Assembly (NCBI RefSeq): GCF_044647545.1
Contig: NZ_CP172818.1
Source of the DNA: Escherichia coli
GTDB lineage: Bacteria > Pseudomonadota > Gammaproteobacteria > Enterobacterales > Enterobacteriaceae
Direction: 5' to 3' (one strand)
Length of the DNA: 64,000 nt
Shown here piece by piece: positions 34,900 to 56,971 of this stretch (position 1 is its first letter; each line of letters starts with the position of its first letter). A model generated the notes under the pieces. It was not told the DNA's origin and searched no databases. It saw only the letters and a list, made by a program, of their open reading frames with translations. A program made the position numbers and the translations under genes.

Positions 34900-35421
34900 T
34901 TATCGCCTGCGCCACCACAACATTCCCATCAGTAGCATCCCCGGCAACCACACCCACATTAATTCAGAAATAATCACCTGATGCCCGTACGGCGTGGTGT
35001 AACGAGACAATGCAAACGGCGCGACTTTAATCACCTGCCAGGGAGCGAAAAAGCGTTCATCTGACCACGGCCACAGCCAGCCAACCCCTTTACCGCCAGT
35101 GGTTACCGAATCCAGCAAGCTGTGCGATAGCAACGAGACGGTTAAAAACAGCCAGCAGCGAATCAGCCCAGCCCTGAACCATCGACGTCCAATCAGCACA
35201 CATAACAGCGGGACAACAAACGCAAACACCAACGAATGGGTAAACCCGCGATGACCAAAAACATTGCCGTAAGCAACGCCAAATTTAAATGACAATACGT
35301 CGGCATCGGGCAGCATCGCCAGGACGATTCCGGCAAATAACAGGCGCGGAGGGATGACTTTTGAACCCAACCCTAAACCAATGCAAAGGGGAACGGCGGC
35401 GTGCGTAATAACGGTTGGCAT
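34900..35421 (-). CDS. ybcI: Inner membrane metal-dependent hydrolase-like protein YbcI
   Basis: 173 aa polytopic membrane ORF. Confidence 0.8.
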   Translation of the reverse strand: MPTVITHAAVPLCIGLGLGSKVIPPRLLFAGIVLAMLPDADVLSFKFGVAYGNVFGHRGFTHSLVFAFVVPLLCVLIGRRWFRAGLIRCWLFLTVSLLSHSLLDSVTTGGKGVGWLWPWSDERFFAPWQVIKVAPFALSRYTTPYGHQVIISELMWVWLPGMLLMGMLWWRRR

Positions 35422-51959: not shown

Positions 51960-52242
51960 TTTGAGAAAAGCAGCGCGTAGTCGGGAATGCCAGGTAAGAA
52001 TCCCTGGCGTATGTAATGGCAACCCTGAAACGTCTGTACTGGCACATATCCGGCTGACTGGATTGTGCGGCACCGGTACCAAACCGCCAGACCTGATTGC
52101 CACCATTGCATGTTCTGCCTGCCACGACGAAATCGACCGCCGCACACATTTTGTCGATGCTGCATATGCAAAAGAATGCGCGCTGGAAGGTATGGCGAGA
52201 ACACAGGTTATCTGGCTGAAAGAGGGGGTTATTAAGGCGTGA
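51952..52242 (+). CDS. ybcO: Prophage protein YbcO
   Basis: 96 aa Cys-rich ORF overlapping ninE end. Confidence 0.75.
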
Positions 52243-52601
52243 ATACCTACAGCATCACATTACCCTGGCCTCCGAGCAATAATCGCTATTACCGCCATAA
52301 TCGCGGGCGCACGCACGTCAGCGCAGAGGGGCAGGCATACCGCGATAACGTCGCCCGAATCATTAAAAACGCAATGCTGGATATCGGCCTGGCTATGCCT
52401 GTGAAAATCCGCATTGAGTGCCACATGCCGGATCGCCGTCGCCGTGACCTGGATAATCTGCAAAAAGCCGCTTTTGACGCACTCACTAAAGCAGGTTTCT
52501 GGCTGGATGATGCTCAGGTCGTTGATTACCGCGTTGTGAAGATGCCTGTTACCAAAGGTGGGAGGCTGGAACTGACCATCACCGAAATGGGGAATGAATG
52601 A
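52239..52601 (+). CDS. rusA: Holliday junction resolvase RusA
   Basis: 120 aa ORF with RusA catalytic Asp cluster. Confidence 0.9.
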
Positions 52602-52738
52602 TGTTTGAGTTTTATATGGCAGAACGTCTTCGCCACCGCTGGGGGCGTCTGCGCTTATATCGTTTCCCCGGTTCTGTTTTGACCGATTACCGAATACTGA
52701 AGAATTACGCCAAAACCCTGACAGGAGCAGGAGTATGA
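52598..52738 (+). CDS. ylcG: Small prophage protein YlcG
   Basis: 46 aa ORF with start overlapping rusA stop. Confidence 0.55.
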
Positions 52739-52823
52739 AGTCAGAGATAACAATCAACTAATACTGTTTCGTTGATTTTTGCTTGTAATTGGCGTTCTGG
52801 TCTGATTTTTGTGGAGTAAGTTG

Positions 52824-53207
52824 ATGCGTGATATTCAGATGGTTCTTGAGCGTTGGGGAGCGTGGGCGGCTAATAATCATGAAGATGTGACCTGGTCGTC
52901 CATTGCCGCCGGTTTTAAGGGATTAATTACTTCAAAAGTAAAATCTCGCCCACAATGTTGTGACGATGACGCGATGATCATTTGCGGGTGCATGGCCCGT
53001 CTGAAAAAGAACAACAGCGATTTGCATGATTTATTGGTGGACTATTATGTCGGCGGCATGACTTTTATGGCGCTTGCACGTAAGCATGGGCGATCTGATT
53101 GTTGGGTTGGCAGGATGCTTCAGAAAGCTGAGGGCGTAGTGGAGGGTATGCTGATGGTGTTGGATCTCCGATTGGAGATGGATGTCGTTGTTAATAACTC
53201 TAATTAA
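52824..53207 (+). CDS. quuD: Lambda Q-like late antiterminator
   Basis: 127 aa from [14 protein letters not shown] with Cys-rich zinc motif. Confidence 0.85.
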
Positions 53208-53458
53208 TATGCCAATTGTTTACTAAAAATTATTAAAAATGGGGCGTTGAGACGCCCCCAAAAATAAAGGGTAATATATAACAGAAGGTTTATATAGTTA
53301 GAAGCAAGGTTGTGCTTCTAAAGGAAGTGGCTTGAGGGAGCCACTTATATGTTGGGGAGGCAACGCCTCCCGCAACATATCTTTTTCGTAATCAGATTAG
53401 AACTGGTAAACCAGACCTACAGCAACGATGTCATCAGTGCTTACACCGAGTGCTTTAG

Positions 53459-54653
<1,195 letters not shown>

Positions 54654-56110
54654 TTAGTGAAGTCATTTTTGTCAAGCAGGTTGATTTTGTAATCAACGAA
54701 AGTAGACATATTTTTGTTGAAGTAATAGGTTGCACCTACATCAACATATTTGACTAAGTCCTGATCGCCCCATACTCCAAGATCCTTACCTTTAGATTGC
54801 AGGTAAGCAACGGACGGACGCAGACCGAAATCGAACTGATATTGTGCAACAGCTTCGAAGTTTTGGGCTTTATTAGCAACGAAGTGATCAGCAAATACAG
54901 TCATATTCTGGGTTTCAGAATAGGTAGTGGCCAGGTAAATGTTGTTAGCGTCATATTTCAGACCTGCGGCCCAAACTTCTGCATTTTTACCGGAAGCAAA
55001 TACTTCAGGAAGAACTTTCCCTGCATTAACTTGAGTGTCGGTACGATCAGATTTCGCATAAGTTGCACCGATACCGAATCCTTCGTATTCATAGGTAGCA
55101 GAGAAACCGAAGCCATCACCGTTACCTTCAGTGTAGTTATCGAAATCGCTACGATCGTTTTTGCCTTGGTACTGAATCGCAAAATCAAGACCATCAACCA
55201 GGCCAAGAAATCATAGTTACGGTAGGTTGCAACACCGTTGGTACGACCATTCATGAAGTTGTCAGCGGAAGCCCAGGAATCGCCACCCCATTCAACTAAC
55301 ATATCGGTATAAGCTGCGGCATCATAAGCAACACCGTAGTTACGGCCATAGTCAAATGACCACTCGTTATATTTCAAACCGGCGAAGGTTAAACGGGTTT
55401 TTTCCTGGTTTTCACCTTCGGGCTTGCTGGCGTCGAGGTTGTATTCAAACTGACCAAAACCAGTCAGTTCGCTGGTGATTTGGGTTTCACCTTTGAAGCC
55501 AAGACGGGCATAAGTAGTATCACCATCATCTGCATCATTAGAGGAGAAGTAGTGCTTAGCATTAACTTTCCCGTACAGATCCAGCTTGTTACTGTCTTTA
55601 TTATAAATTTCAGCTGCCTGAGCAGACATCGCCATTAGTACTGATGCAGCTACAGCAGAAATTGCCACTGTTAATTTTTTCATCGTGAGCCCTTTTTTTG
55701 AACTATTATTAAAAAATGATGTCACTGCGCGATAAATATTCATCTAATCAATGTGATTATTTCAAGATGTAAGTTTTGGTTTCTCGTTTGATTTGTGAAG
55801 TAGATCTCTATTTTTATCTGAACTTTTTTCTATCGAATCCTATTCATGGCTCTTGGCTGAATAAAAATAAATCTATTAGCCAATTTATATTAACGGCTGT
55901 TATTTATAAGTGCTCTATAATTTGAAGGTTCAATTTAAACCGGCTAAAAATAACACTGGAAATTATTTTTTGGTTATTTGTTGAGATTTGCTTATGTATT
56001 TGTAGTGGTGTTTTCAATACTCGGTAGCATTCTCTCAAATATCATTTAGTGGTTTACGTACGTAAAAAATTGGTTATGCTGTTAAGAGTGGTTACTTCGT
56101 CACACAGCTT

Positions 56111-56140
56111 AAACCCGCCGTCGAGCGGGTTTTTCCATTT
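56111..56140 (+). terminator. tR-prime-like terminator upstream of holin gene
   Basis: AAACCCGC-CGTCGA-GCGGGTTT followed by T run. Confidence 0.5.
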
Positions 56141-56258
56141 TTTGAGTCTCGATATTAGCTGATAACCCAATACCTGAGTTATTCACTGACTCCGAGTCTG
56201 TTACGTTTCGTAGTATTCCCTCAATTTACACCCATCCGTTATTTGCGGAGGTGAGGCT

Positions 56259-56474
56259 ATGAAATCCATGGATAAGTTAACAACGGGCATTGCCTACGGC
56301 ACCTCCGCAGGCAGTGCTGGCTACTGGTTTTTACAGCTGCTCGATAAAGTCACGCCCTCACAGTGGGCAGCAATAGGTGTGCTGGGTAGCTTGGTATTTG
56401 GCCTGCTGACGTACCTGACAAACCTTTATTTCAAGATTAAAGAAGATAAGCGCAAGGCTGCGAGAGGTGAATAA
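56259..56474 (+). CDS. essD: Class I holin (lambda S-like)
   Basis: 71 aa small TM protein heading the lysis cassette. Confidence 0.9.
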
Positions 56475-56971
56475 TGCCTCCATCATTACGAAAAGCCGTT
56501 GCTGCTGCTATTGGTGGCGGAGCAATTGCTATAGCATCAGTGTTAATCACTGGCCCAAGTGGTAACGATGGTCTGGAAGGTGTCAGCTACATACCATACA
56601 AAGATATCGTTGGCGTATGGACTGTATGTCACGGGCATACAGGAAAAGACATCATTCCCGGTAAAACGTATACCGAAGCAGAATGCAAAGCCCTCCTGAA
56701 TAAAGACCTTGCCACGGTAGCCAGACAAATTAACCCGTACATCAAAGTCGATATACCGGAAACAACGCGCGGCGCTCTTTACTCGTTCGTCTATAACGTG
56801 GGCGCAGGCAATTTCAGAACATCTACTCTTCTTCGCAAAATAAACCAGGGCGATATCAAGGGCGCATGTGACCAGCTACGTCGCTGGGCATACGCTGGCG
56901 GTAAGCAATGGAAAGGCCTGATGACTCGTCGTGAGATTGAGCGTGAGGTCTGTTTGTGGGGGCAACAATGA
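56474..56971 (+). CDS. rrrD: Phage lysozyme (T4 e-like endolysin)
   Basis: 165 aa ORF with glycoside hydrolase 24 catalytic E...D...T region. Confidence 0.9.

Follow-up and report, generated by a model that had tools for sequence, protein, structure and literature searches.

The hairpin cluster and its gene neighborhood

The stretch of Escherichia coli DNA analyzed here, 64,000 nucleotides in length and called the window below, carries a dense cluster of hairpins at 53208-53396, in the spacer that runs from the stop codon of a Q-family gene to the stop codon of a convergent porin gene (Table 1). A sequence-only reading of the window had described a Q-like gene converging on the 3' end of nmpC, and this arrangement was borne out by the Pfam family of the first gene (PF06530) and by the porin stop codon (TAA, 53399-53397, - strand). 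The porin gene is interrupted by an IS5 element whose transposase ORF occupies 53605-54621 on the - strand.

When MG1655 coordinates are converted to those of the window (offset 521132), the spacer proves 100% identical to the quuD-nmpC spacer of the MG1655 prophage DLP12 (574340-574590), and the identity extends, again at 100%, over window positions 53186-55167 with the IS5 insertion included. In phage PA-2 (J02580), the DNA that follows the lc porin gene matches the spacer at 99.6% identity, and about 35 further lambdoid phages in which Q is followed by a convergent porin gene match it at 92-99%. Among complete E. coli genomes, 2,501 of 5,426 (46%) contain the region 53225-53399, with no more than three copies per genome.

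Several side observations concern the same neighborhood. IS5 sits in nmpC at the same site as in K-12, and the junction also occurs in the phage 434 isolate 434B (OL657227), in whose annotation a substitution derived from DLP12 is marked. At 55168-55457, a patch of nmpC drops to 58-75% identity with MG1655, while the sequence on either side matches at 100%; the patch may reflect gene conversion of surface-loop coding sequence in an nmpC already inactivated by IS5. On the + strand, a 72-codon ORF (53349-53567), the counterpart of “ORF1” in the PA-2 record, overlaps hairpin H4 and runs into IS5, and is almost certainly not a gene.

According to the literature, DLP12 produces IpeX, a 167-nt RNA made within the porin transcript, which represses the translation of ompC and ompF and leaves OmpA unaffected. 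Published genetics assigned the repression of OmpC and OmpF to the IpeX fragment, the 165-nt fragment alone has been reported to lower OmpC when overexpressed in cells devoid of nmpC, and IpeX is treated as Hfq-independent for its main target. The cluster lies directly after the nmpC/lc stop codon and before a Q-family gene in a prophage of the DLP12/PA-2 type, and the porin-strand RNA ends within it at a Rho-independent terminator; the interval between the stop codon (53399) and the mapped 3' end (53235) measures 165 nt, within 2 nt of the published 167 nt. We consider it highly probable that the cluster is the known ipeX locus, the structured 3' untranslated tail of nmpC (lc in PA-2), and this known identity, the IpeX small RNA or nmpC 3' UTR, was overlooked by the sequence-only reading. 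Rfam covariance models gave no match at E <= 1 across 52000-56500, IpeX having no Rfam model, and RefSeq carries no annotation on the IpeX region either in MG1655 (where micF is annotated) or in the listed matches.

Table 1. Features of the Q-nmpC spacer and its surroundings (window coordinates).
Feature	Position	Strand	Description and basis
Q-family antiterminator gene (quuD-like)	52824-53207	+	127 aa; Pfam PF06530, E = 1e-50
IpeX RNA / nmpC 3' UTR	53235-53399	-	MG1655 identity, published length, Term-seq 3' end
H1	53241-53258		Stem GGGGCGT / ACGCCCC, loop TGAG; 7-bp GC stem
Linker	53260-53297	-	Largely exposed, conserved; includes the AU hairpin and two C/U-rich anti-Shine-Dalgarno stretches
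Proposed ompF seed	53266-53283	-	Within linker
Fifth hairpin	53275-53296		AU-only, weak; within linker
Proposed ompC seed	53276-53290	-	Within linker
H2	53298-53321		TTAGAAGCA / TGCTTCTAA, 6-nt loop, 9-bp stem; T-tract on neither strand
H3	53325-53346		AAGTGGCT / AGCCACTT, 6-nt loop CCCUCA, 8-bp stem
H4, full	53347-53380		Outer arms ATATGTTG / CAACATAT, one bulged base; 15 bp, -22 kcal/mol
H4, inner stem	53355-53371		GGGAGGC / GCCTCCC, 3-nt loop AAC
nmpC fragment 2	53397-53458	-	Last 62 nt, ends GLVYQF-stop; MG1655 annotation
IS5 inserted in nmpC	53459-54653		Transposase strand = nmpC/IpeX strand (-); MG1655 IS5B 574591-575785
pR' homologue	56053-56087	+	-35 TTTACG, 16-nt spacer, -10 TATGCT, inferred start near 56087
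Terminator-like hairpin	56111-56132	+	GC, T-rich tail; upstream of essD (56259); terminator scan

Fold of the cluster and strand of termination

All four of the GC hairpins that had been noted within 190 bp are present in the sequence. On the - strand, the 175-nt stretch that holds them folds at -63.4 kcal/mol, against -30.9 +/- 3.0 kcal/mol for dinucleotide shuffles (z = -10.75, with none of 200 shuffles as good), and the same stretch on the + strand gives z = -6.8; because the fold lies so far below the shuffles, the cluster cannot be put down to chance. In the case of H4 the inner stem had been described and its loop misread, since the “AACG” given for it is the loop AAC with one extra G, and the true stem is longer, spanning 53347-53380. 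H4 begins 16 nt past the nmpC stop codon, where it probably serves to protect or process the 5' end of IpeX.

The hairpins differ in the tails that follow them. H1 is followed on the - strand by AUUUUU at 53240-53235 (ATTTTTAA), with a stem of -12.5 kcal/mol, and the terminator scan called it on that strand only; its first 8 tail bases include 5 T on the - strand vs 1 on the + strand. The corresponding counts for H4 are 5 T on the + strand vs 2 on the - strand, and the tails of H2 and H3 have at most 4 T in 8 bases, never in a run. H1 thus has the makeup of an intrinsic terminator on the - strand, H4 has it weakly on the + strand (its stem base is AU-rich and its tail variable), and H2 and H3 lack it altogether. 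The + strand T-tail of H4 (CTTTTT) depends on lineage, reading CTTTTTCG, CTTTTAGT or CCTTTATT. No hairpin has T-tracts on both sides, and the idea that the hairpins act as bidirectional terminators fails on this distribution, in which the one T-tail on the - strand belongs to H1, the one on the + strand to H4, and none to H2 or H3.

The 3' ends were taken from the published K-12 Term-seq supplementary tables (Adams et al., 2021). In these, the dominant - strand 3' ends fall at MG1655 574367/574366 (window 53235/53234), at the end of the H1 U-tract, with scores of 46,656 and 66,408 in two data blocks; a secondary - strand 3' end lies at 574476 (window 53344), 3 nt beyond H4, and a Rho-dependent termination region is given at 574331(-) (window 53199), past H1 and inside the Q gene (Adams et al., 2021). 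No + strand 3' ends are listed over MG1655 572350-578444 in the same tables (Adams et al., 2021), and the only 3' ends found there are on the - strand.

Because both its T-tail and the mapped 3' ends are confined to the - strand, H1 is a one-way terminator of the nmpC/IpeX strand, with experimental support, and Rho acts behind it to keep antisense read-through out of the Q gene. As a side observation, the 3' end at 53344 and the Rho region at 53199 suggest that a shorter stable RNA exists and that some transcripts pass H1. H4 could conceivably act as a weak + strand terminator of Q-gene read-through; the K-12 data do not decide against this, because a cryptic prophage may hardly transcribe Q.

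The Q allele and the displaced late promoter homologue

The sequence-only reading had supposed that the spacer occupies the place where lambda has pR', qut and tR'. This did not hold. No promoter-like site was found by a scan of the spacer 53208-53400, and the Sakai-type pR' sequence is absent after Q; a late control region of the usual arrangement, with pR', qut and tR' just after Q, is not found there. The Q protein is 77-81% identical to the Q proteins of H-19B and VT2-Sakai (and a distant match to Q21 structures). In Sakai the pR' start has been mapped by dRNA-seq, 258 nt upstream of tR', and in the Sakai sequence this mapped start falls at a TTTACG-16-TATCAT promoter that overlaps the end of Q.

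A homologue of that promoter, the mapped pR' of 933W/Sakai, is present elsewhere in the window (Table 1). The segment 56050-56135 aligns with the Q-proximal region of VT2-Sakai, with AAGAGTGGTTAC following TATGCT, and the stretch 56053-56140 follows Q at a distance of 2.85 kb, with the nmpC promoter region on one side and essD on the other. The promoter fragment that others have used for the DLP12 lysis operon (-121 to +650) is consistent with a pR' at 56053-56087. Judged by these alignments, the porin moron occupies roughly 53200-56045 and thereby parts Q from the pR' that belongs to it. With the pR' homologue beyond nmpC, Q-dependent late transcription would never cross the hairpin cluster; on the + strand the cluster could be reached by read-through from the Q gene alone.

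The Q gene itself is a mosaic. Its C-terminal half (52968-53185) diverges from MG1655 quuD, with 69-91% identity in 100-nt bins, and residues 1-120 of the protein are 99% identical to Q of phage IdasGreatGrand, whose downstream leader differs. The divergence up to 53185 and the identity from 53186 onward point to a recombination joint some 20 nt short of the Q stop codon; an allele of this kind may be mismatched to the DLP12-type pR'. A shared 9-mer (ATATAACAG) downstream of IdasGreatGrand Q might have hinted at a pR' leader but was discounted, as nothing else aligns.

Conservation and covariation

The region was gathered from about 180 viral contigs and E. coli genomes with the nmpC 3' end and the linker as anchors, and 25 distinct variants were aligned and scored against the five-helix - strand structure. 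Standard pairs made up 97.9% of the pair cells in these 25 variants. Five pairs had changed on both sides (four in H4 and one in H2) vs zero to two in controls with slid partners, and 11 of 500 shuffles equalled the five; since a single divergent lineage (L126 and seven relatives) accounts for all five, they represent few independent events. In that lineage H4 has been almost wholly rebuilt with different bases. The changes in H2 comprise one compensatory flip (U-A to A-U), two G-U variants that are valid on the - strand only, and loop variation, and H1 keeps its stem while its loop varies, with one U-G wobble that is likewise valid only on the - strand.

The G-U pairs are informative as to strand. 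Four sites, each common to at least three variants, carry G-U pairs that only the - strand RNA can form; the G-U pairs that would suit only the + strand appear as singletons in the GC hairpins. Substitutions are otherwise concentrated in the loops of H1, H2 and H4. This asymmetry of the G-U pairs, together with the pattern of variation, indicates that the structure under selection is that of the - strand RNA.

Conservation is not confined to paired bases. The H3 loop CCCUCA is invariant in the 25 variants, and the linker is near-invariant in the set anchored outside it (in the linker-anchored subset its conservation is there by construction), so that the unpaired linker and the H3 loop are conserved as much as the stems, or more. 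A search with the 20-mer of the linker in one genome per species gave a single match only, and no cross-genus homologues for covariation. The sole match (SFGN01000137.1, 2603-2622) lies in a 5-kb contig of a metagenome-assembled genome labelled Lachnospiraceae that carries an E. coli phage module, and is probably a binning error.

Predicted pairing with porin leaders

IpeX (53399 to 53233, - strand) was compared with the MG1655 ompC, ompF and ompA leaders and with the nmpC leader by means of 22-nt duplex windows and opening energies. Two other approaches were set aside: whole-length RNAduplex of IpeX against the leaders gave meaningless end-to-end duplexes and was replaced by the 22-nt windows, and hybrid-only energies were uninformative, since whatever is rich in GC will pair with the GC stems of IpeX, and 51% of random segments beat ompC.

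With accessibility taken into account, IpeX nt 110-124 (AACCUUCUGUUAUAU) and ompC -21 to -7 (AUAUAACAGAGGGUU) are predicted to form 15 consecutive pairs (14 Watson-Crick and one G-U) that cover the Shine-Dalgarno sequence, with a total of -12.8 kcal/mol. For ompF the predicted duplex joins IpeX nt 117-134 to -15 to +1 of the leader, in the form of 10 bp, one mismatch and 5 bp (-8.3 kcal/mol), and the accessibility-corrected energies fall to -2.6 kcal/mol for ompA and -3.8 kcal/mol for the leader of nmpC itself. The predicted order, ompC > ompF >> ompA and nmpC, agrees with the reported specificity of the targets.

None of 520 random 160-nt segments of the window equalled the ompC value (the best reached -9.8), and a run of 15 pairs was found in 0.6% of 3,158 random segments. 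The ompF value was equalled by 5 of the 520, which puts its duplex in the top 1% of the random null, and 3 of the 43 ORF leaders in the window score as well as ompF. A reciprocal scan by hybrid energy alone, over all 25,588 windows of 30 nt in the 64 kb, ranked the IpeX linker first for the ompC leader, nearly tied with another (-24.7 vs -24.5), and did not place it among the best partners of the ompF leader. Another strong match to the ompC leader falls within coding sequence (35196-35225), is rich in G-U pairs and was treated as chance.

The cores of the proposed seeds, the loop ACCUUCUG and the linker stretch UUACCCUUU, have unpaired probabilities of 0.65-1.0. The H3 loop CCCUCA has an unpaired probability of 1.0 and is the exact complement of UGAGGG, the Shine-Dalgarno sequence of ompF. 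Read on the + strand, the linker (53266-53296) itself resembles porin initiation regions, with AGGGTAATA as in ompF and ATATAACAGA.GGTT as in ompC, and 17 of 19 bases identical to ompC; this suggests that the antisense seed may have arisen by inverted capture of porin leader sequence. The Hfq-CLASH supplementary tables hold no entries for ipeX, nmpC, ybcQ, quuD or insH2, and no IpeX chimeras.

Discussion

The element described here is already known, and the cluster is a re-discovery of IpeX; its main role is that of a structured regulatory RNA. We observed directly that the locus is the one found in K-12 and PA-2, how it folds, on which strand and at which position its terminator lies, and that its stems are conserved. 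As to how it acts, the duplex calculations lead us to favor, at somewhat better than even chances, an ordinary base-pairing antisense RNA in which the linker would carry the ompC and ompF seeds and the H3 loop would supply a third motif. Such pairing would explain why OmpC and OmpF are repressed while OmpA and the phage porin are spared, and why Hfq is dispensable for the repression of ompC and required for that of ompF. To our knowledge, anti-Shine-Dalgarno pairing is absent from the published description of IpeX. The abstract of the 2006 study by Castillo-Keller et al. is said to report no complementarity between ipeX and the ompC leader, and the pairing model may be in conflict with the 2006 work on IpeX or already covered by it.

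The steps by which we picture this are as follows. Transcription from the porin promoter passes the stop codon, then H4, H3, H2 and the exposed AU-rich linker, and ends at H1; in the copy of nmpC that is split by IS5, it presumably starts inside IS5 or passes through it. (Inspection by eye of the nmpC 3' fragment and the end of IS5 for a - strand promoter of IpeX gave only a poor candidate, TTGCTG-18-TAATCT, on which we do not rely.) The stable 3' fragment of about 165-167 nt that is left is IpeX, with H1 supplying its 3' end and presumably shielding it against exonucleases, and with the long H4 near its 5' end, H2 and H3 forming what may be a nuclease-resistant scaffold. The exposed stretches ACCUUCUG and UUACCCUUU and the H3 loop CCCUCA could then pair over the Shine-Dalgarno regions of the two host mRNAs, by 15 bp in ompC and 10+5 bp in ompF, and so keep ribosomes from binding, and IpeX, according to the literature, does lower the synthesis of OmpC and OmpF after transcription. 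As the leader of the phage porin would be spared, the host porins would be replaced by that of the phage.

The strongest competitor, to which we would give about one chance in four, is that IpeX acts without base pairing, for instance by using its hairpins to titrate ProQ or a ribosomal or Shine-Dalgarno-binding factor. The “novel mechanism” originally proposed in 2006 reportedly implied action of this kind, a review states that the mechanism does not rely on complementarity alone, and both the very high degree of structure in IpeX and its description as Hfq-independent, together with its absence from the Hfq-CLASH tables, count in favor of this reading. It would leave unaccounted for, however, a 15-bp duplex over the ompC Shine-Dalgarno sequence that no random segment among 520 could equal, as well as a predicted specificity that fits the reported one; moreover, a long perfect duplex is plausibly independent of Hfq.

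It is unlikely, at perhaps one chance in ten, that the four hairpins terminate in both directions and so shield the convergent nmpC moron from late transcription that depends on Q and arises at a pR' just after it, as the sequence-only reading had it. Part of that proposal stands: H1 does terminate - strand transcripts, and the Rho region at window 53199 halts transcription derived from nmpC before it gets far into Q, so that Q is protected from antisense transcription. H4 does have a CTTTTT tail on the + strand, and convergent genes often share terminators. The shielding of nmpC from late transcription, however, falls away, since the spacer has no promoter-like site and late transcripts from the pR' homologue beyond nmpC would miss the cluster, leaving only read-through of Q from pR to arrive there; nor is any hairpin T-tracted on both sides (H2 and H3 not on either), and the tail after H4 is unconserved and has no + strand 3' end in the K-12 Term-seq tables. 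In lambda-type phages, polymerase from pR is modified by N and resists terminators.

Slightly less probable still is a passive tail that would stabilize and terminate the porin mRNA and have no action on other genes. Stacked GC hairpins at the 3' ends of mRNAs are classic barriers to exonucleases, and the secondary 3' end 3 nt past H4 is what stalling of an exonuclease would be expected to leave; but a pure barrier would have no need of a conserved linker and H3 loop, the complementarity to the ompC leader is non-random, and the repression of OmpC and OmpF has been assigned to the fragment by published genetics. That the + strand is instead the late leader of the phage (pR', qut, a short RNA like 6S or StxS, and tR'), as in lambda, is very improbable in spite of its position directly after Q, the terminator-like form of H4 on the + strand and the + strand fold (z = -6.8), given that the spacer lacks a promoter-like site and is unlike the pR' regions of VT2-Sakai, H-19B and IdasGreatGrand, with which 56050-56135 does align, and that the G-U evidence favors the - strand, where alone 3' ends are mapped.

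Taken as an antisense RNA that pairs with porin leaders, IpeX would make the tail of a phage porin mRNA a dual antisense against both major porins of the host, and would give the prophage a compact means of swapping the cell surface; OmpC is, according to older literature, the receptor of PA-2. If the pairing is real, it would resolve a mechanism that has been open since 2006, unless it has already been shown, and its novelty is uncertain. The displaced promoter matters independently of this. In phages of the Q-nmpC type, the moron between Q and pR' corrects the natural assumption that pR' always follows Q, and the displacement matters for the engineering or interpretation of late-gene or toxin expression in Q-nmpC prophages. 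In practical terms, as long as IpeX has neither an Rfam model nor a RefSeq annotation, genome scans will keep flagging it as unexplained hairpins, and a curated model would be useful.

Comparison with known systems

The closest relative is IpeX of DLP12/PA-2 itself (Castillo-Keller, Vuong and Misra, 2006), which has the identical sequence, position and strand and whose length of 167 nt fits; structurally there is no difference from the IpeX of DLP12, and what sets the present locus apart is the upstream Q allele, which is a different mosaic.

Among the RNAs derived from the 3' ends of mRNAs, the class of DicF, CpxQ and MalH resembles IpeX in its origin, in its use of the intrinsic terminator of the parent transcript, in the processing that has been reported and in acting on other mRNAs; MalH also targets ompC, according to a 2022 review of 3' UTR-derived small RNAs, in which IpeX is not listed as a member of the class. 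IpeX exceeds these by far in length and structure, having four stem-loops ahead of its terminator, and differs also in its short U-tract (5 U) and in being reportedly Hfq-independent for ompC.

MicF (acting on ompF) and MicC (acting on ompC) share with IpeX a porin-specific repression and pairing at or near the ribosome-binding site, the pairing of IpeX being predicted, and each of these genes is coupled to a different porin gene, which lets one porin take the place of another. MicF and MicC come from genes of their own, depend on Hfq and carry their seeds at the 5' end, whereas IpeX is the tail of the mRNA of a competing porin and its proposed seeds are internal; unlike either, a single IpeX RNA carries proposed sites for both porins. 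Finally, StxS and the 6S RNA of lambda, which are pR' transcripts ended at tR', are like IpeX short prophage RNAs that adjoin Q, but IpeX lies on the opposite strand and has a different origin, and the homologue of their pR' leader is found in this window at 56053-56140, beyond the porin gene.
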